A stretch of 64,000 nt of DNA from sequence record PP236086.1. One strand, 5' to 3'. How positions within the stretch are numbered: position 1 is the stretch's first letter; each line of letters opens with the position of its first letter. Source of the stretch: Enterobacter phage ZX14. A program made the translations under genes and the position numbers. Positions 29,898-46,355 of the stretch are shown piece by piece. The notes under the pieces are model-generated. The model made no database searches and was not told the DNA's origin. It saw nothing but the letters and a program-made list of their open reading frames with translations.

Positions 29898-30068
29898 TTT
29901 ATTTCTCGGATTAGTGGGGCCATTCCTTGGCACATAATTCATCCGTGTTACACTATGTAAACCCCTTACCGCACTTGGGCTCGACCTTATTACAGGTAGG
30001 AAAAGGCCCATCACTCAGAGGACACGATGTTCATGAGGAGAGGGTGTGTCTGCCTTTATTAGGAAGGC

Positions 30069-30635
30069 TTAACGCGCCTTATTTGCTACTGCAAATGCGT
30101 ATTCTACGTTAGGGTCTTTGAACACACCTTTAGTAGTGTCCATATCAACCTTAAATCCACCGCGAGCCATTACACCACTGAATTCTTTACGGAAGTCGAA
30201 AGTGTCAAGACCAGCCCATTGGGATTTATGTTTAGCAAATTCCTGTCCAGCAAAGTTTGCTGCTTTAGCCAGTTTATTATCAATGACCCACTTGCCATTT
30301 TTAGGAACAAATGCAGGCCCTTTCTGTTTGGAGAAAAGCTTCAGATGTTCGCGACGGAGAGCCGTATCTGCTTTAACGAATGCTGGGTCTAGGTTACCAG
30401 CGACGATATCTTCGATGTCATTGAACTTAAGACCATCAACAGTGATATTCAAGTCATTACGCCAGCGAAGTCCTTCCCAAGCAAAAGCTTTGAAGTCTGA
30501 ACCTTTAGTAGCCAGATAACGTTCAATAGGAGCGGTTTTGGAATCGAAGCCATTTCCACCATAAGTCCATTCATCTTTATTGATGCCTTTAACACCAATA
30601 GTAGCTTCAGCAATAAACTCTTGATAAGTTTTCAT
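30069..30635 (-). CDS. ipIII: Internal head protein IPIII-like, with capsid-targeting sequence
   Basis: A 188 aa ORF starting MKTYQEFIAEA (the T4 IP CTS); size and position resemble IPIII. Confidence 0.7.
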   Translation of the reverse strand: MKTYQEFIAEATIGVKGINKDEWTYGGNGFDSKTAPIERYLATKGSDFKAFAWEGLRWRNDLNITVDGLKFNDIEDIVAGNLDPAFVKADTALRREHLKLFSKQKGPAFVPKNGKWVIDNKLAKAANFAGQEFAKHKSQWAGLDTFDFRKEFSGVMARGGFKVDMDTTKGVFKDPNVEYAFAVANKAR

Positions 30636-30643
30636 TTCAATCC

Positions 30644-30937
30644 TTATGCAAACGGGTCGTGAAGCTTATTACCAACTTTACGGAAGACTTTAGCAGCAAA
30701 TTTGTTGGTTGGGTTATCAACCATAATTTTACGCATTTGGCTTGTAGCTGCAGTACGAGCGGCTTTATAACCAGCGATATTATCTTTGATGGTTACACGT
30801 TTGCCACCAGGGCCGTCAACAGTTACTTTATAGACGCCTTCATCTTCACCTGGTTTGATTTCTTCAATCCAGATATAGCCACCCTGGACACGTTGAGCCT
30901 GGGCTGTTTCAGTGAGAAACTCTTGATAAGTTTTCAT
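30644..30937 (-). CDS. ipII: Internal head protein IPII-like, with capsid-targeting sequence
   Basis: A 97 aa ORF starting MKTYQEFLTE. Confidence 0.65.
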   Translation of the reverse strand: MKTYQEFLTETAQAQRVQGGYIWIEEIKPGEDEGVYKVTVDGPGGKRVTIKDNIAGYKAARTAATSQMRKIMVDNPTNKFAAKVFRKVGNKLHDPFA

Positions 30938-30954
30938 TTTTAATCCTTAATTTA

Positions 30955-31371
30955 TTAGTTGTAGATAGCCTTACCATAATGTTTATACCACTGAGGCCTT
31001 TGAGCAATTTTTTCATCCAGACGCGCTTGAGAAATTTTAAGAGCGTCTGGAGTTGGAACATAATCATTGCGGAATTCGACCGGAATGTCGCTAATATCCT
31101 GAACAGTAATGTCCTGGATTTTAAAACCACGTTTTAAGCATTCCGCGATTAAGTCGATTTGACGTTTACGCAAGAACTCGAGCTTGTCATAAAAGAATGT
31201 TACATGACCTGTACCTAAAATGAAAACTGAAGAGATTTTAAAATCCTTGAGCTTTTTACCATTTTGAACGTGCTTACGAACAGCACCGAATACACGAGGT
31301 AATTCACGGTACTCTGCCATCAGGTGTTGGTCAGCCAGTTCAGATACTAAAGTTAAGTTAATGCGTGTCAT
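30955..31371 (-). CDS. denV: Endonuclease V (pyrimidine-dimer DNA glycosylase)
   Basis: 138 aa: [34 protein letters not shown]... matches T4 DenV. Confidence 0.92.
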
Positions 31372-31376
31372 TTTTA

Positions 31377-31432
31377 ATCTCCGTTTGTTTGGTATGAGAG
31401 TATCATAACACGGCCAAACGGAGTTGTAAACT
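31377..31432 (-). promoter_or_regulatory. PeSL-like early promoter upstream of denV (ctccgtttg...caaacggag + GTTTACA)
   Basis: tgtaaac at 31426-31432. Confidence 0.55.
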
Positions 31433-31706
31433 ACTTCTTAGAATAATCTGCCATTAGTGCAGCAATATCACTAAGTTTTTTACCAAACAGATATTCGACT
31501 TCATTACCTTTCTTATCTACGATCTGCCATTGGCCTGAACCTTTGTTGCCAAAGGTATAATCACCAACTTTATAAGAGAAGCCACCTACTTTTTTAATAG
31601 GAGTAAAAGTGAAACCACCTTTCTTAGCCAAGAATTCCATCCGACGCAGATCGTCAGCATCTTCATTCAAAGCCTGTTCAGCAATAAATTCATTATAGGT
31701 TTTCAT
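31431..31706 (-). CDS. Novel internal-protein-like gene with capsid-targeting sequence
   Basis: Starts at the internal Met [11 protein letters not shown] and overlaps the 3' end of e by 14 nt. 91 aa. Confidence 0.55.
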
Positions 31707-32190
31707 ATGCTTTCCAAGTACCAGTTTTAAAAGTTGCAATCACGCGTTTAGCACGATTAGGGGTTTGAGATTTGTACCAGCGAGAATCAGCTAACTCGAT
31801 TGCGGCTTTGTCCCACTGTTTCGCTTTTAACAGACGCATACCTTTAGGGAAACCTGCTGTACCGGCAACACCCATCTGGAACACCATGTTAATTAATGCA
31901 CAGCGACGAACTTCATCTAGCACATCGTAAACAGGTTTTAGAGTAGCATTAGCCAAGATACCTTTACGAGCTTTTTCTACAGAAGAATTGAAAAGATTTT
32001 CTGCTTCCTGTTGTGTGATACGACCATTACAAACCCGACCCATTAATCGATCAAGCTCATCACGTGCTACATTGTATGAAGGGTTTTTAGTAATCAATTG
32101 TCCTATGCCAATAGTCCAAAAACCTTCAGTGTCTTTGTATAATTCTAATTTACAGCCTTCGTCAATACGAAGCATACCAAAAATGTCCAT
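31693..32190 (-). CDS. e: Endolysin (T4 lysozyme)
   Basis: 165 aa: [35 protein letters not shown]...[12 protein letters not shown]...[14 protein letters not shown], as T4 E. Confidence 0.92.
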
Positions 32191-32222
32191 AGGACCTCCT
32201 ATCTAATTGATAGAAGTATTTA

Positions 32223-32717
32223 TCAACCTACAGACTTGCTTTCTTTTGGGAACAGGCGTTGCATTACATTGAACAGACTTGGTCCCATGACATAATTCCA
32301 TTGAGATGGTTTAATCAATGCAAATGCGTCAATTTCAGGGAACCGTTCACCAGTTTCACGGTCTTCATGGTATGCCGTACAGACACAATCCTTGAACTGC
32401 TCGTGGCGGACAGGGAGCGGATAAATGAACAGATGCAAATCTTTATTACTTGCGTACTTCTGTCGTCCTAGGTCTACCAGGAGCGCAGGATTGTAGTCAA
32501 TAAAACCGGTTTCTTCGCGGCACTCACGTACTGCGGCTTCAAGAGCAGATTCGCCCTCTTCAATATGTCCTTTAGGGATATCCCAACGAGAAGGCATTCC
32601 AGGAGCAAGGCTTGAATTAGTCACACGGCCCATGAATAGTTCTTTATCTTCGGTGAAGAATAAAATCCCAGCCGATACTTCTTTTTTAATTATGGCCATT
32701 ACGGCATCCTTTAACAA
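32223..32717 (-). CDS. nudE: Nudix hydrolase (e.1/NudE-like)
   Basis: A 164 aa ORF with Nudix box GHIEEGESALEAAVRECREETG. Confidence 0.8.
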   Translation of the reverse strand: MLKDAVMAIIKKEVSAGILFFTEDKELFMGRVTNSSLAPGMPSRWDIPKGHIEEGESALEAAVRECREETGFIDYNPALLVDLGRQKYASNKDLHLFIYPLPVRHEQFKDCVCTAYHEDRETGERFPEIDAFALIKPSQWNYVMGPSLFNVMQRLFPKESKSVG

Positions 32718-33006
32718 AATCGGTTAATTGCACATTTTGTAAATTCTTTTCTTGTCTTTTTGCTTTAATCTTATCATTTATATGAATATGAATAGCACCA
32801 CAAATGCCACCTATAATAATAGCACCTCCATAAGAAATAAATGCTAAAGCGAGCATTGCTACAAAATGGAATGGGTGGAATGGTGTAAAGCCAAACAGCC
32901 AAATTGCACTCCCGACCAAGAAGACCCAATACCATGCGGCCATCCACTTATCACAATAATAATCATATTCATTTCGTGGGATTCTGTTTCTAACTTCTAC
33001 GCCCAT
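32686..33006 (-). CDS. Membrane protein, paralog A (C-terminal ...KGCRNG)
   Basis: Starts at the internal Met MGVEV... Has 2-3 TM helices and a C-terminus shared with the next ORF. Confidence 0.4.
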   Translation of the reverse strand: MGVEVRNRIPRNEYDYYCDKWMAAWYWVFLVGSAIWLFGFTPFHPFHFVAMLALAFISYGGAIIIGGICGAIHIHINDKIKAKRQEKNLQNVQLTDFVKGCRNGHN

Positions 33007-33502
33007 TACGGCATCCTTTAATGAATTTATCGAATTCTTTTTGCTTAGCTTCTGTTTTCTCACGGCGTCTAAGGAATGGATAGTGAATCCCATAAGCCAC
33101 AATACCGGTAAGAAGAGCTAAAGCACCACCAACCAAAACAGAGAAAATAACCCAAGGAACAATACAGACCAATGAAATAAAAATAGCACCGGCGATAGGG
33201 AGTCCTTTAGCCATTAAGATTGGCCATAAGAAGAAATATACCGTCAATGGATACCCAAGCCAACCTAATGAGTGCATCCCTACATCAACATTACGGTCAA
33301 CGTTATCATACCAGTATTCTTTTTCAACTTCAGTTTTCTTTTCTGGATAAGATATATTAGGTTGATATCCACGGCTCATATTATAATCCTCAATTAAAAT
33401 TAATTTTACTTCAATTGGACATCCTGTCCAATCTACCCAATCTACTGGAATGCCATAAAACGGATCGTCCAGATTACGCCAATGAATTTGATGAATAGCC
33501 AT
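32990..33502 (-). CDS. Membrane protein, paralog B (C-terminal ...KGCRNG)
   Basis: A 170 aa ORF with TM helices; the C-terminal ...FIKGCRNGRRS parallels ...FVKGCRNGHN of the neighbouring ORF. Confidence 0.45.
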   Translation of the reverse strand: MAIHQIHWRNLDDPFYGIPVDWVDWTGCPIEVKLILIEDYNMSRGYQPNISYPEKKTEVEKEYWYDNVDRNVDVGMHSLGWLGYPLTVYFFLWPILMAKGLPIAGAIFISLVCIVPWVIFSVLVGGALALLTGIVAYGIHYPFLRRREKTEAKQKEFDKFIKGCRNGRRS

Positions 33503-41336: not shown

Positions 41337-41410
41337 AGGCGGGTGATGGACTCGAACCATCGCATATCGGGATATGAACCCGACCTTCTACCAACTGAAT
41401 GTAACCCGCA
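41337..41410 (-). tRNA. tRNA with anticodon CAU (Met or lysidine-Ile)
   Basis: The reverse complement gives GCGGGTTACATTCAGTTGGTAG...TCGGG-TTCATAT-CCCGA...GATGG-TTCGAGT-CCATC-ACCCGC. Cloverleaf with T-loop TTCGAGT; anticodon loop TTCATAT. Confidence 0.7.
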
Positions 41411-41674
41411 TTTGTCCGGGTCCAGAGAGTACTAATAAGTAGGCTGTAGTAGAACCCATTGACTAGAATCAATGAGGGAACATGAACCTTTAGCCCCGGC
41501 ATTATCTTATGGACTTCAAACTCTTCTCTCTAGACTGCCTCGTATTATTGCGCCCATCTTGCTGTGGCATTAGACCATGAAGCATTACCGAAATCGCCTG
41601 ATTACGTTAATGTCTGGGTGCTATCCAGGGAACAGAGCTTGGACGGCTTTCCATATCGTCATATGGATTTCTGT

Positions 41675-41750
41675 TGGGGTGACCTGTGGGACTTGAACCC
41701 ACGACTACAAGAATCACAATCTTGAATTCTACCAACTGAATTAAGGCCAC
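41675..41750 (-). tRNA. tRNA-His (GUG)
   Basis: The reverse complement is GTGGCCTTAATTCAGTTGGTAGAATTCAAGATTGTGATTCTTGTAGTCGTGGGTTCAAGTCCCACAGGTCACCCCA. Anticodon loop TTGTGAT; CCA encoded. Confidence 0.8.
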
Positions 41751-41781
41751 ATCAATATTCACTCGTAAATGAATATTAATT

Positions 41782-41857
41782 TGGCTAGGGTATCAGGACT
41801 CGAACCTGAGCATAATGGGATCAAAACCCACTGCCTTACCAACTTGGCTATACCCTA
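41782..41857 (-). tRNA. tRNA-Gln (UUG)
   Basis: The reverse complement is TAGGGTATAGCCAAGTTGGTAAGGCAGTGGGTTTTGATCCCATTATGCTCAGGTTCGAGTCCTGATACCCTAGCCA. Anticodon loop TTTTGAT. Confidence 0.8.
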
Positions 41858-41953
41858 TTTAACTGGCGGTTAGTGCAGGTATCGATACCTGCCTTGTCCT
41901 AAGACACGGATTAACAGTCCGTCGCTTCCCCTCTCAGCCAACTAACCGGAATT

Positions 41954-42032
41954 TGGTGGTTGTGCCTGGAATCGAACCAGGGTTCCTAAATTTAACTAAA
42001 GGGCGCTTATGCCTGCTTGGCGCGACACAACC
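41954..42032 (-). tRNA. tRNA-like gene, anticodon ambiguous (possibly UAA); non-canonical D-loop and variable-loop lengths
   Basis: The reverse complement is GGTTGTGTCGCGCCAAGCAGGCATAAGCGCCCTTTAGTTAAATTTAGGAACCCTGGTTCGATTCCAGGCACAACCACCA. The acceptor and T-arm are clean, but the anticodon stem (CTTTA/TTAGG) has a mismatch. Confidence 0.55.
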
Positions 42033-42038
42033 TGAATT

Positions 42039-42114
42039 TGGTGGGTCTGGATGGACTCGAACCATCGACACCCGCATTAAAAGTGCGGTGCTCTACCAAC
42101 TAAGCTACAAACCC
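42039..42114 (-). tRNA. tRNA-Lys (UUU)
   Basis: The reverse complement is GGGTTTGTAGCTTAGTTGGTAGAGCACCGCACTTTTAATGCGGGTGTCGATGGTTCGAGTCCATCCAGACCCACCA. Anticodon loop CTTTTAA. Confidence 0.8.
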
Positions 42115-42196
42115 ATATTACTGTTCTTTAGTCGAGCCGACTTGTCCGTATTCTTTCAACGGTGAGCTGATAGCTGTAACAGTAATACTCTAAATT

Positions 42197-42284
42197 TGGT
42201 GGGGAGTGATGGAGTCGAACCACCCGAGTCGCAATGACAACAGATTTACAGTCTGCACCGCTACCTCTACGGAATTAACTCCCC
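42197..42284 (-). tRNA. tRNA-Tyr (GUA), type II
   Basis: The reverse complement is GGGGAGTTAATTCCGTAGAGGTAGCGGTGCAGACTGTAAATCTGTTGTCATTGCGACTCGGGTGGTTCGACTCCATCACTCCCCACCA. Anticodon loop CTGTAAA; long variable arm. Confidence 0.75.
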
Positions 42285-42297
42285 GTGATACTTTTAT

Positions 42298-42540
42298 TTA
42301 TTCAGTATATCTCTTGAACTGTAAAGCAAAATCTTCATCAACCTTAGTCAAGAAGTGTCCTGCCTTAAATCGTTTAGAGCTACCTTCAACTTCTACACCG
42401 TAACCGTTCTTACCAAGGACTCGACCAACTCGCATTTCACCAGGGTCACCCATTGAATTACAACGAACACCATATAGAACAAAATCATTTTCGAACACCG
42501 GAGTTTGTTTCCGATCTTTAATTAATTCTATCATATTCAC
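42298..42540 (-). CDS. Hypothetical protein embedded in tRNA cluster
   Basis: 80 aa ORF. Confidence 0.4.
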   Translation of the reverse strand: MNMIELIKDRKQTPVFENDFVLYGVRCNSMGDPGEMRVGRVLGKNGYGVEVEGSSKRFKAGHFLTKVDEDFALQFKRYTE

Positions 42541-42541
42541 C

Positions 42542-42997
42542 TTAAAGCATATTACGTTTTAAGTTTTCACGAACTCGATAAAGGTTTGAACAGAATTCCT
42601 GTTCGGTTAGAACGGTTTCATTCTTTTTCGACTTGCCCATCGAGTGAGTTAATGTAGAGTTCTGTGTAGCCAGAAGTGCTCTCTTGAACCCTTCATTACG
42701 TCCTAATTCATTATATGCACGTTCAATAAGAAGTCTGTAGGCGTCACTCTGACGTTGCATAGGCACACCTTTCCAGTACAGGGTTTGAGTACGCCACCAC
42801 TTCTTTTTCTTACCTTTGAACTTAGCTGCTTTACCAACTAGAGTACAAACATGTTCTTGCATTTCGACTGAACTAAATTTCAGTGATTGCAAAAATCCTT
42901 CCATCGAAGCACATTCTACACCATCAATTGTAAAAGCATGAGGTGCAAAATTACTTAATGCAGATGAAGGATAACCTGAACCTGAACCAATATCCAT
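42542..42997 (-). CDS. Hypothetical basic protein embedded in tRNA cluster
   Basis: 151 aa. The N-terminal DIGSGSGY resembles SAM-binding motif I. A Lys-rich patch (KFKGKKKKWWR) suggests nucleic-acid binding. Confidence 0.45.
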   Translation of the reverse strand: MDIGSGSGYPSSALSNFAPHAFTIDGVECASMEGFLQSLKFSSVEMQEHVCTLVGKAAKFKGKKKKWWRTQTLYWKGVPMQRQSDAYRLLIERAYNELGRNEGFKRALLATQNSTLTHSMGKSKKNETVLTEQEFCSNLYRVRENLKRNML

Positions 42998-43254
42998 TAT
43001 TCATTTTCCTTTTCAAGAAGGAACATATACATATCGTCATGGTCTTGCATAACGTTTTCAAATTGTGATTCGTATTCAGCCAATGGTGCAGAACCAAGCC
43101 AGTTAGCACATTGAATACGTAAGTCGCCATTAGCGCCTTGATAAATCAAAGCTTCAGAATATCCACCTGAAGCCCATTCGATAATTGCATGTCCTAAACG
43201 ATATTTCATTATATTTTCCTCAGTGTCTGGTGTCCCCTGATGGATTCGAACCAT
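42997..43254 (-). CDS. Hypothetical protein embedded in tRNA cluster
   Basis: 85 aa ORF. Confidence 0.4.
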   Translation of the reverse strand: MVRIHQGTPDTEENIMKYRLGHAIIEWASGGYSEALIYQGANGDLRIQCANWLGSAPLAEYESQFENVMQDHDDMYMFLLEKENE

Positions 43255-43304
43255 CGACCCACAGCTTAGAAGGCTGTTGCTCTATCCGGCTGAGCTAAGA
43301 GGAC
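43228..43304 (-). tRNA. tRNA-Arg (UCU)
   Basis: The reverse complement is GTCCTCTTAGCTCAGCCGGATAGAGCAACAGCCTTCTAAGCTGTGGGTCGATGGTTCGAATCCATCAGGGGACACCA. Anticodon loop CTTCTAA. Confidence 0.8.
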
Positions 43305-43307
43305 GAA

Positions 43308-43385
43308 ATGGTGGCCCTTCTGGGAGTCTAACCCAGCTTACACCGGTTATGAGCCGGGTACTTTCACGCGACAGTACAAAGGGCC
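43308..43385 (-). tRNA. tRNA with anticodon CAU (second Met/Ile-type), unusual T-loop TTAGACT
   Basis: The reverse complement is GGCCCTTTGTACTGTCGCGTGAAAGTACCCGGCTCATAACCGGTGTAAGCTGGGTTAGACTCCCAGAAGGGCCACCA. Confidence 0.65.
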
Positions 43386-43394
43386 TGAATAATT

Positions 43395-43480
43395 TGGTGC
43401 ACCGAGTGGGACTTGAACCCACAATCCATAAGGCGTATCATTTTAAGTGATATATGTATACCAATTCCATCATCGGTGCG
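43395..43480 (-). tRNA. tRNA-Leu (UAA), type II
   Basis: The reverse complement is GCACCGATGATGGAATTGGTATACATATATCACTTAAAATGATACGCCTTATGGATTGTGGGTTCAAGTCCCACTCGGTGCACCA. Anticodon loop CTTAAAA. Confidence 0.75.
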
Positions 43481-43704: not shown

Positions 43705-44004
43705 TTATAAAAGCATATTAATGTAAGTATTTTGAATCTGTGGGAGATTAAGTTCATCTTTAAAGATGTCATATTCTTTAATGCTCTTACCATCTTCAGA
43801 AACAAAGAAGGAAAGATTCACACTATTGAATTCCCAGCGCATATCAACTAGCCGTACCGCAGTAGAGCTTCGGCCTATGGCCACTACATCTACTTCATAA
43901 AGAAAATCAGGGCCCCAGGTTTCGATATGTTCTTCACACATTTCTTGATCAGCTTTATAGCCGTTCTGTGGCTTAGTAATCTGAGCAAACAATTTCATCA
44001 GCAA
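43705..44004 (-). CDS. Hypothetical protein
   Basis: 99 aa ORF. Confidence 0.4.
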   Translation of the reverse strand: MLMKLFAQITKPQNGYKADQEMCEEHIETWGPDFLYEVDVVAIGRSSTAVRLVDMRWEFNSVNLSFFVSEDGKSIKEYDIFKDELNLPQIQNTYINMLL

Positions 44005-44390
44005 TTACCTTCTGCAACAATCACATGAGTTTTGGCATTAACAATCTGCCACCATTGGAAACGACCACTGCCATAAAGAGGCTTGTTTTCGTTGGCTGCA
44101 ATAATATCACGCAGTTCATCTTCGGTCGCTGCTTTTGCTATAAGGTCTTCATAACCACCGCGTGGATAGTAGTTCTCACCGGCAAACAGCAAGAAGTTAG
44201 GCACGATAGCCTTGAACTCTTCCAGGGTAATTACAGTTCCACCTGGCTGCATAATTTCAACATAACTATAAGGGCAATTCTGAGCTACGTCTACAGCTTG
44301 CAGAAGTGTATCGTGTGCAAAGCAGATTTGATTATCTTTATCCTTAGAAGGATTTGCTGAATAGTCACCAAATACTTTATACATCTTCAA
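43998..44390 (-). CDS. Hypothetical protein with YYPRGG motif
   Basis: A 130 aa ORF containing ...ENYYPRGGYEDLI... Confidence 0.45.
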   Translation of the reverse strand: MKMYKVFGDYSANPSKDKDNQICFAHDTLLQAVDVAQNCPYSYVEIMQPGGTVITLEEFKAIVPNFLLFAGENYYPRGGYEDLIAKAATEDELRDIIAANENKPLYGSGRFQWWQIVNAKTHVIVAEGNC

Positions 44391-44625
44391 CCACCTTCAT
44401 TGTACGTTTGCAGACAACATAGTCTTCACGGTTCAACCCTTCAAAGTCAAGTTCTTTCAAAGCATCTTCAACAGTGTCAAAACCTAATGCTTCAGTCAGA
44501 CCAGTTAGATACCAGCCACCATATTCAAAATCGCTATTATACGCACAGAAAGAACCAAACTCTTTATTTCGAATTACATAATCAAAAGTTTCCATATTTT
44601 CCTCACAGATCGTCACAATCACCAC
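44377..44625 (-). CDS. Hypothetical protein
   Basis: 82 aa acidic ORF. Confidence 0.4.
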   Translation of the reverse strand: MVIVTICEENMETFDYVIRNKEFGSFCAYNSDFEYGGWYLTGLTEALGFDTVEDALKELDFEGLNREDYVVCKRTMKVVEDV

Positions 44626-44794
44626 TATAAATGGTCGTAAAAGATGAATCCATTACTTCATAACGGTCATAACAACCAGAAGTACCATTTTCTCTGGCAT
44701 ACTCTAAAGCTTGTTCTGGTGAGCTAAAGGTATCGATAAGGTCTCGAGACCCACCGCCAGGATAATAACGAGACCACATAAACAGTGCGTACAT
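44603..44794 (-). CDS. Hypothetical protein with YYPGGG motif
   Basis: A 63 aa ORF whose ...RYYPGGGSRDLI... parallels the 43998 ORF. Confidence 0.4.
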   Translation of the reverse strand: MYALFMWSRYYPGGGSRDLIDTFSSPEQALEYARENGTSGCYDRYEVMDSSFTTIYSGDCDDL

Positions 44795-44800
44795 ATTTCC

Positions 44801-44995
44801 TCACTTAGCGATGTTGTGCATCAGGAATGCAATACCACCAATAACTGCGGTTACGGCCAGTGAAACCATATTCTCAGTTGTCGTCAACAGGCCAGTCAAG
44901 AATCCAGCAAACATAGAGAAGCTGAAAGTTGTTACTGCGACGAGGGCTGCTACATTACGGATTGCTTCGGCACGTTTCATTTTATTCTCCATCAC
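44801..44995 (-). CDS. Small membrane protein
   Basis: A 64 aa ORF with two TM helices. Confidence 0.4.
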   Translation of the reverse strand: MMENKMKRAEAIRNVAALVAVTTFSFSMFAGFLTGLLTTTENMVSLAVTAVIGGIAFLMHNIAK

Positions 44996-45048
44996 TTCAT
45001 TTGTTTTGATAGGACCATCTTATCATGCCCTATTCAGCTTGTAAACAC

Positions 45049-45315
45049 TTATTTTAAATGTTTTTTGATATCACTAATTTTAACTGGCTTACCATCGATG
45101 CGAAATTCTTTAGCACCCCAACCTTTGATGTGGTTCAGAAGAGTATCAAGGTCTTTTGCTTCACCAAGGTCAACCATTGCGTTCTCATGCGAACCTTTAA
45201 TATGTACAGCACGGAACAACTTGTGAGTACCATATTGGGAATCGGTAATACTCAGTTCGACATGATTGAAAGCATCGCCTTTAGCTTCATTGATAAATTC
45301 TTGATAAGTTTTCAT
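45049..45315 (-). CDS. Novel internal-protein-like gene with capsid-targeting sequence
   Basis: Starts MKTYQEFINEAKG at the internal ATG 45315. 88 aa. Confidence 0.55.
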   Translation of the reverse strand: MKTYQEFINEAKGDAFNHVELSITDSQYGTHKLFRAVHIKGSHENAMVDLGEAKDLDTLLNHIKGWGAKEFRIDGKPVKISDIKKHLK

Positions 45316-45337: not shown

Positions 45338-45373
45338 GAGAGTATAGTAACACGGGTATTTATGGATGTAAAC
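45338..45373 (-). promoter_or_regulatory. Early promoter upstream of IP-like gene 45049..45315
   Basis: tgtaaac at 45367-45373 with ...agtatagtaacacg... as the -10 region. Confidence 0.45.
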
Positions 45374-45381
45374 ACTTAAAT

Positions 45382-45407
45382 GCAAAAAAGGAACCCGAAG
45401 GTTCCTT
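45382..45407 (-). terminator. Intrinsic terminator (GGAACC-UUCG-GGUUCC-UUUUUU)
   Basis: aaaaaaggaacccgaaggttcc. Confidence 0.7.
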
Positions 45408-45411
45408 AACA

Positions 45412-46355
<944 letters not shown>

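Follow-up and report, generated by a model that had tools for sequence, protein, structure and literature searches.

Within a 64-kb stretch of the DNA of Enterobacter phage ZX14 (PP236086.1), referred to below as the window, five genes, which we name A to E, code for proteins that begin with the capsid-targeting tag of the internal head proteins (Ips) of phage T4. We consider it likely that these are T4-type internal head proteins injected into the host, that their bodies, the part of each protein that follows the tag, most likely block host nucleases, and that their genes are exchangeable cassettes. Their identification as Ips rests on the tag, the cleavage motif, the loci, the basic character of the mature proteins, the family assignments and the cassette polymorphism described here.

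Five tagged genes in two internal-protein loci

The tag, MKTY[Q/N/K]EF, stands at the start of five open reading frames (ORFs), all on the minus strand, in the ORF listings of the 28-34 kb and 43.5-47.5 kb regions and in a six-frame scan; run over the whole 64 kb with the wider pattern MK[TS][YF].[ED]F, the scan returned five matches, in these ORFs alone and always at the ORF start. All five conform to MKT[Y/F]xEF, with aromatic residues at positions 4 and 7. The six-frame residue frequencies lead one to expect 4.9e-4 occurrences of MKTYxEF by chance, and 200 mononucleotide shuffles produced 0. Gene A (30069-30635, 188 residues) encodes an orthologue of T4 IPIII, gene B (30644-30937, 97 residues) an internal protein of the Ip10 family and gene C (31431-31706, 91 residues) an internal protein, while the tag-bearing products of D (45049-45315) and E (45412-45678) have 88 residues each, D lying in the slot of T4 ipI and E directly after 57B. 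An original prediction, made from the letters of the sequence, had placed five tag-bearing ORFs at exactly these positions, and the common minus strand is the detail that we add to it.

Transcription at both loci runs from high to low coordinates. The order of genes at the first is nudE - e - C - denV - B - A - vs.8-like, A to C flanking denV downstream of e, and at the second 1 - 57A - 57B - E - D - trna.4-like - ... - tRNA cluster, D and E being lodged between 57B and a trna.4 homologue. The T4 counterparts read e - ipIII - ipII - denV and 57B - ipI - trna.4. That D and E adjoin 57B had been predicted, and the ORF map bears this out: it is the position of T4 ipI. The five genes fill the two canonical internal-protein loci of T4, e-denV and 57B-tRNA.

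The window was assigned by megablast to the genus Kanagawavirus (Straboviridae, Tevenvirinae). Its closest relative is Enterobacter phage vB_EclM_Q7622 (Q7622 below), with 93-98% identity to the window, followed by Kosakonia phage 305, vB_EhoM-IME523 and vB_EclM_CIP9 (CIP9 below). The T4-type prohead module is complete in Q7622, in the order gp20-gp67-gp68-gp21-gp22-gp23 (portal, gp67, gp68, head maturation protease, scaffold and major head protein).

Propeptides and mature proteins

Mutations of IPIII have established that targeting requires no more than the first ten residues, with positions 4 and 7 important for it and positions 8 and 10 important for processing, and that the protease gp21 cuts after the Glu of L/I-x-E (PMC9026906). 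All five window proteins possess Tyr4 and Phe7. A check proposed with the original prediction, namely to align the tags and to predict the gp21 site, turned out in its favour, as [L/I]-x-E is found in every protein, ending at residue 10 in A to D, where it occupies residues 8-10 (IAE in A, LTE in B, IAE in C, INE in D), and at residue 15 in E, where ITE occupies residues 13-15; the counterpart of the latter in T4 IPI is an ITE at 17-19, the end of a 19-residue propeptide.

The predicted cuts fall before ATIG in A (tag MKTYQEFIAE; mature protein of 178 residues, isoelectric point, pI, 9.4), before TAQA in B (tag MKTYQEFLTE; 87 residues, pI 9.8), before QALN in C (81 residues, pI 9.2), before AKGD in D (tag MKTYQEFINE; 78 residues, pI 9.0) and, behind the longer propeptide of 15 residues, before GAIT in E (73 residues, pI 9.6). 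All five mature proteins would be small, basic and lysine-rich, with 7.8-9.6 kDa for B to E (73-87 residues) and 19.8 kDa for A, and with pI values of 9.0-9.8 as against 9.0-9.65 for the Ips of T4.

Bodies of distinct families behind a common tag

Protein A is 76.8% identical to T4 IPIII over 190 residues (BLASTP, E 5e-107), and it matches phrog_5341 over its full length (E 4e-104); full-length homology to IPIII is found in A and not in B to E. Protein B belongs to the Ip10 family: it is 54% identical, over 99 residues and its full length, to the 'Ip10 internal head protein' of phage PP01 (E 4e-40), the gene of which sits between e and ipIV/vs.8. It also matches phrog_3966, it is 100% identical to gp130 of Q7622, and its body, used alone as a query, is present in 191 phage records. 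Protein C falls into phrog_8765, 'internal virion protein' (E 2e-43), and it is so annotated in the RefSeq relatives; its body occurs in 42 phage records, which comprise Kanagawavirus, Winklervirus and other T4-like phages. One of its homologues, from Serratia phage X20 (P0024), has the annotated N-terminus MTLLESYLQTYTQPLTESE; this may be explained by degeneration of the tag, residue 7 being Pro, or by a TTG start, and it may mark a loss of packaging in Winklervirus.

Protein D matches phrog_31819, and its body also matches phrog_3720; its 163 records, mostly from Klebsiella phages, are always labelled 'hypothetical'. Protein E, of phrog_36925, is rare, being known from four distinct phages only, in five protein clusters, and it is likewise annotated as hypothetical. 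With T4 IPI and IPI*, D and E share an alignable N-terminus only (BLASTP E 0.001-0.011 in databases of 8-13 sequences), and no body among A to E is homologous by BLASTP to that of IPII (Ip2), the tag alone being aligned. Other candidate relatives of D were considered and set aside. No similarity connects it to T4 trna.2/3/4, e.7/e.8 or vs.7/vs.8, and two large proteins that scored high with D in an HMMER search (P0011, P0012) are artefacts in which tandem repeats sum weak partial matches.

The original prediction had also held that the bodies are unrelated to one another, and this is what we find. An all-versus-all BLASTP comparison aligns the first 7-13 residues alone at meaningful identity, and comparison of the profiles of the C, D and E families yields a confident alignment over 10-12 columns of the tag only, the longest alignment, E with C, covering 41 columns at 12% probability. 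By BLASTP, beyond the first 10-13 residues B to E resemble neither T4 IPI, IPII or IPIII nor one another. AlphaFold models rest on small alignments for both C and D; both are confident and their folds differ, D being modelled (pLDDT 84) as a small alpha/beta fold, beta3-alpha-beta2-alpha, and C (pLDDT 88) as a sheet of five strands between a long helix at the N-terminus and another helix at the C-terminus. Against the BFVD database, the model of D matches uncharacterised proteins of T4-like phages only.

Searching the bodies, which was another of the checks proposed, therefore gave a divided answer: B to E are indeed unlike the three Ips of T4, but A is the orthologue of IPIII, B is Ip10 and C already bears the label of internal virion protein. 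The novelty attributed to these proteins was, in the same way, overstated, all five being near-identical to proteins of sequenced relatives or matching existing PHROG families; what holds is that D and E lack any annotation as Ips.

How large is the repertoire?

The prediction further spoke of an expanded repertoire. This is correct with respect to T4, which has three Ip genes where the window has five, and marginal with respect to close relatives, which have four each: B, C, D and E in Q7622, and gp230, B, C and a different ipI in CIP9. Beyond these relatives, one T4-like genome of 170.5 kb (IMG/VR UViG_2974734865_000001) has at least five different MKTY..EF ORFs, of 132, 99, 74, 90 and 205 residues; the ORF of 205 residues displays a linker rich in proline, alanine and lysine. 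A pattern scan of IMG/VR also revealed, among the matches listed, several genomes with three MKTY..EF ORFs in a single locus. Five Ip genes is thus at the high end and not exceptional.

Exchange of cassettes between relatives

Comparison with the relatives delineates the units that are exchanged. Alignment breakpoints indicate that Q7622 is without window positions 30072-30642, which is precisely gene A, from the stop codon of B to the stop codon of A, and that Kosakonia phage 305 is without 45407-45674, which is precisely gene E. At the position of A, CIP9 has a different Ip of 99 residues, the homology spanning B and the first 11 or so codons of A before resuming at the stop codon of A; at the second locus of CIP9, E is missing and the body of D is replaced, homology ending at about codon 11 of D, with the junction at window position 45282. 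Both junctions lie next to the tag-coding repeats, that of A (codons 1-10, 30606-30635, minus strand) with its CIP9 junction at about codon 11, and that of D (codons 1-10, 45286-45315, minus strand) at the 5' junction of the body replacement. A DNA repeat, ATGAAAACTTATCAAGAGTTT..., is common to the five genes, the ribosome-binding site and tag being identical at 23-35 of 45 positions.

In the case of D, a match at 90-95% to remote coliphages, JS98 and JS10 among them, extends over the 45-50 or so nucleotides of the ribosome-binding site and tag. Most differences among the close homologues of D (P0001-P0005, 85-97% identity) fall in the tag and linker, which read FINEAKGD, FIAEAKGG, FINEST, FIAESKSD and FLNESKD, and because such near-identical proteins vary chiefly there, gene conversion or exchange among the tags of different Ip genes is suggested. 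The CIP9 junctions, the tags of the D homologues and the match to JS98 and JS10 lead us to regard the tag-coding DNA, at the level of sequence, as a portable 5' recombination site, entire cassettes being also gained and lost. Against phage records the DNA of A reaches no more than about 78-79% identity, and its flanks are 84-96% identical to Kanagawaviruses, a disparity which suggests that the A cassette was acquired separately.

The body of D is known both with and without the tag. Klebsiella phage KPV15 (Jiaodavirus) has, at positions 1504-1794 of its locus (L007), a homologue of 96 residues that starts MSKFNF... and is 41% identical over 56 residues to D residues 16-70 (E 1e-14); this protein represents phrog_3720. 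An in-frame stop lies 17 codons upstream of it and there is no MKTY; in phages of the genus Jiaodavirus, this tagless homologue comes immediately behind the tRNA cluster. A distant tag-bearing relative of D was found as well (P0013). Since the same body occurs in both states, its tag looks like a module open to gain or loss. The literature examined contains no statement of one body existing both with and without the injection tag.

Expression signals and neighbouring genes

Between E and D lies a composite terminator and early promoter (45344-45407, minus strand), PeSL-like, in which a hairpin is followed by a promoter and then by a Shine-Dalgarno sequence. The terminator hairpin (45407-45388) is the stem-loop AAGGAACC-TTCG-GGTTCCTT followed by a run of T, and the promoter upstream of D (45372-45344), TTTACA-17-TACTAT, fits the PeSL consensus of the hyperplastic regions of T4-like phages, TTTACW-N17-TAYWAT (PMC4122927). 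Early-type gTTTACA promoters are also present, all on the minus strand, after D (45017-45045), after C (31402-31430) and after A (29934-29961), and one string, CCGTGTTAYKATACTCTCATACCAA, recurs in the promoter that precedes D and in the one that precedes denV. As to the T4 late promoter, TATAAATA, its exact form is rare in the window, with 3 copies as against 5.8 expected by chance, and GATAAATA at 32217-32224 (minus strand) precedes gene e, at the place of the two TATAAATA late promoters of T4 e. The GC-richer stretch 29900-30068 downstream of A, considered as a possible RNA or mobile element, was rejected as such, Rfam finding only tRNAs in the window; an early-type promoter of the vs.8-like gene lies within it.

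C and E are placed for translational coupling, to e and to 57B respectively. Gene e (31693-32190, minus strand), identified as a T4-type lysozyme by its ORF translation and by the lysozyme annotation in Q7622 and CIP9, ends 14 nt inside C, the ATG of which is at 31706; the overlap of C with the end of the endolysin gene had been noticed in the prediction, and the same overlap is annotated in Q7622 and CIP9. The ATG of E shares an ATGA with the stop codon of 57B (45675-46130, minus strand), which lies directly upstream of E according to the annotation in relatives and the T4 map. B and A follow denV, the gene of endonuclease V (30955-31371, minus strand; ORF translation and annotation in relatives), located between C and B, and both have good Shine-Dalgarno sequences.

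Further away, between the two Ip loci, eight tRNA genes form a cluster (41338-43479, minus strand), behind which homologues of T4 trna.2, trna.3 and trna.4 are found at 43705-44995. At 32686-33502 (minus strand), the position of T4 e.3/e.4, two adjacent ORFs for predicted membrane proteins share the terminal motif F[VI]KGCRNG and appear to be paralogues; the true start of the downstream ORF probably lies after the TTG listed for it.

What the five proteins may do

The pathway that we envisage for these proteins would begin with the first ten or so residues (15 in E), which would act as a capsid-targeting propeptide and bind the nascent protein to the prohead scaffolding core made of gp22. The prohead protease gp21 would then cut after the Glu of [L/I]-x-E, leaving a small basic protein in the head with the DNA, and at infection this protein would be ejected into the cell along with the DNA, where each body would most likely bind and block one host nuclease attacking the hypermodified phage DNA; type IV restriction enzymes of the GmrSD family would be the best-supported class of target. 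The genes would constitute a palette of cassettes, genes or bodies being gained, lost or replaced, with the ribosome-binding site and tag DNA and the promoter and terminator elements used as recombination points. For packaging, cleavage and injection we infer this course from the experiments made with T4, and anti-type-IV targets are likewise attributed to A to E by analogy. A co-injected anti-restriction activity is the best guess as to function because Ip1, Ip2 and Ip3 of T4 each inhibit one distinct GmrSD subtype, with no cross-protection (Silas et al., PMC12373910).

Several observations weigh against this interpretation. Scans of all five proteins against Pfam and NCBIfam gave nothing above threshold, and PDB sequence searches with B to E gave no meaningful match, so that in these three resources no body of the four looks like a characterised inhibitor. 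Foldseek comparison of the models of D and C with the PDB retrieved nothing at E <= 0.001, and IPI* was not among the structures recovered. The gp21 gene and the DNA-modification genes are outside the window and were seen in the relative Q7622 only. Neither virion proteomics nor N-terminal sequencing was found in the literature for this phage or for homologues of B to E, nor was virion proteomics for Kanagawavirus phages or phage fHe-Yen9-01, and an integrated omics study of T4 says nothing of the ip genes; packaging and cleavage are accordingly put forward here on the strength of the T4 precedent. The tagless D body in Klebsiella phages implies, furthermore, that the activity of D does not require injection. 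Upstream of the five genes there is also no exact late promoter TATAAATA; this is not evidence against their being Ip genes, since T4 ipI, ipII and ipIII have the same early-type gtttaca promoter upstream and no TATAAATA within 110 nt.

It might be argued that the proteins are packaged and yet have a mainly structural or physical role, in neutralisation of the charge of DNA, in assembly of the prohead core or in DNA condensation. Each of the five predicted mature proteins is small, basic and rich in lysine, the roughly 1000 Ip molecules in a T4 head touch the phosphates of the DNA through their lysines (PMC3012670), and a structural role of IPIII-type proteins is possible because IPIII affects the rate of head assembly and the burst size, its mutants assembling heads more slowly and giving about 40% of the normal burst (PMC9026906). 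We nevertheless hold this explanation to be improbable, as T4 deprived of all three Ips grows on laboratory hosts (PMC9026906), as the three have specific GmrSD targets, and as it would leave unexplained the unrelated bodies, folded as far as the models go, the conservation specific to each family and the rapid turnover of cassettes. Even a little less probable, to our mind, is that at least one ORF, most plausibly E or D, retains a tag-like N-terminus while its product stays out of the head, as a cytoplasmic accessory protein or a decaying one. The propeptide of E diverges after residue 7 (SQTEVITE), its more distant homologues start MKTFKEH.. or MKSLKEY.., the X20 homologue of C has the degenerate N-terminus ..LQTYTQPLTE, and D has an early-type promoter of its own; but all five proteins retain Tyr4, Phe7 and the [L/I]xE site, the propeptide of T4 IPI is similarly long and divergent and the protein is packaged all the same, T4 ip genes have early-type promoters too, and none of the five ORFs is disrupted, their conservation among phages amounting to 61-100% identity.

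A more serious alternative, which we see as possible while doubting it, retains injection and counter-defence and supposes that some of B to E are aimed at systems other than GmrSD, such as further modification-dependent nucleases, BREX-associated enzymes, abortive-infection sensors or RecBCD-like functions. The bodies of B to E are unrelated to Ip1-3, the hosts are Enterobacter and Kosakonia and not E. coli, and the D body, also known in a non-injected form, would suit a target that acts later than restriction at first contact. The modification genes of Q7622 tend in the same direction, looking arabinosyl-type rather than glucosyl-type: upstream of the DNA polymerase gene, outside the window (24668-28859 of L010), Q7622 has a gene-42-like 'thymidylate synthase' flanked by a SIS-type isomerase and a nucleotidyltransferase of 562 residues, a set that resembles the candidate genes for arabinosyl-hydroxymethylcytosine of RB69 (PMC6024577). 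Extrapolating from this relative, the lineage may carry arabinosylated rather than glucosylated hydroxymethylcytosine. Against a shift of target stands the absence of direct evidence for another one, together with the fact that every Ip with a known target inhibits a member of the GmrSD family, the great diversity of which (PMC12373910) would account for many specific inhibitors; the arabinosylated DNA of RB69 is itself cut by GmrSD enzymes (PMC6024577).

One may go a step further, although only tentatively, and propose that D and E are injected inhibitors of defences not yet linked to Ips, be they Enterobacter nucleases directed against arabinosyl-type DNA or systems other than nucleases, and that the D family has undergone a recent conversion between a cytoplasmic and an injected state by gain or loss of a ten-residue tag. 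Were this so, the tag would be a portable 'inject-me' module added to pre-existing counter-defence genes.

The interest of Ips is that they are counter-defence factors of the first contact, each characterised one blocking a specific type IV restriction enzyme. The five candidates come from a lineage of Enterobacter and Kosakonia phages that is of interest for phage therapy, and two of them, D and E, are nowhere annotated as injected. They could serve as probes for the Enterobacter restriction systems that limit T4-like phages, and the D family, with and without its tag, provides a natural comparison from which to learn how an anti-defence protein benefits from being injected.

Relation to known systems

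The general picture of the Ip loci is left unchanged by these findings, the five genes being ordinary members of a long-known, fast-swapping class of counter-defence genes. Shuffling of the palette of internal proteins was proposed in 1994 as a way to change host range, as Comeau et al. recall (PMC4122927), and diverse Ip bodies behind a conserved tag, shuffled at these loci, have been described since 1994 (PMC4122927, PMC3012670, PMC9026906, PMC12373910). At least ten Ips have been reported, and other proteins of the two Ip loci are predicted to target further GmrSD variants (PMC12373910); IPIII, for its part, is needed for infection of ECOR17 by T4 (Srikant et al., PMC9391042). An injected anti-restriction function, which the original prediction had offered as the candidate role of these proteins, is therefore the present consensus expectation for Ips and not a new hypothesis. 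What these genes add is modest: the unannotated tag-bearing D and E families, clean breakpoints of tag-mediated cassette exchange in Enterobacter phages, and a family of bodies with and without the tag.

Taken in turn, the known proteins place each of the five. With T4 IPIII (Ip3), which inhibits the GmrSD of the ECOR17 type, A shares the tag MKTYQEFIAE and the cut before Ala11, its size and pI are similar, and it differs in its place, downstream of denV and after B, T4 ipIII being found between e and ipII. With Ip10 of T-even-type coliphages, as in PP01, B shares the tag and the e-denV/vs.8 locus; it is an orthologue that has diverged, and the annotation of its own relatives calls it simply 'hypothetical protein'. 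With T4 IPI and IPI*, which inhibit the two-subunit GmrS-GmrD, D and E have in common the ipI slot and a mature length of 73-78 residues as against 76, and E in addition resembles IPI in its longer propeptide, which closes with ITE; the bodies of D and E have no similarity to that of IPI, and two genes stand here in place of the single one of T4. IPII (Ip2), an inhibitor of the fused GmrSD/BrxU, has the same tag and the type of locus of B and C, with no similarity of body to any of the five.

Finally, the cassettes themselves, one more instance from phages of Enterobacter and Kosakonia, behave as in the hyperplastic Ip loci and the PeSL-driven shuffling treated by Repoila (1994), Arbiol (2010) and Comeau (2014): the same gene-sized insertions and deletions, the same replacements of bodies and the same junctions in the tag DNA are seen, a stem-loop and TTTACA-N17-TAYWAT flank D in like manner, and nothing differs in kind.

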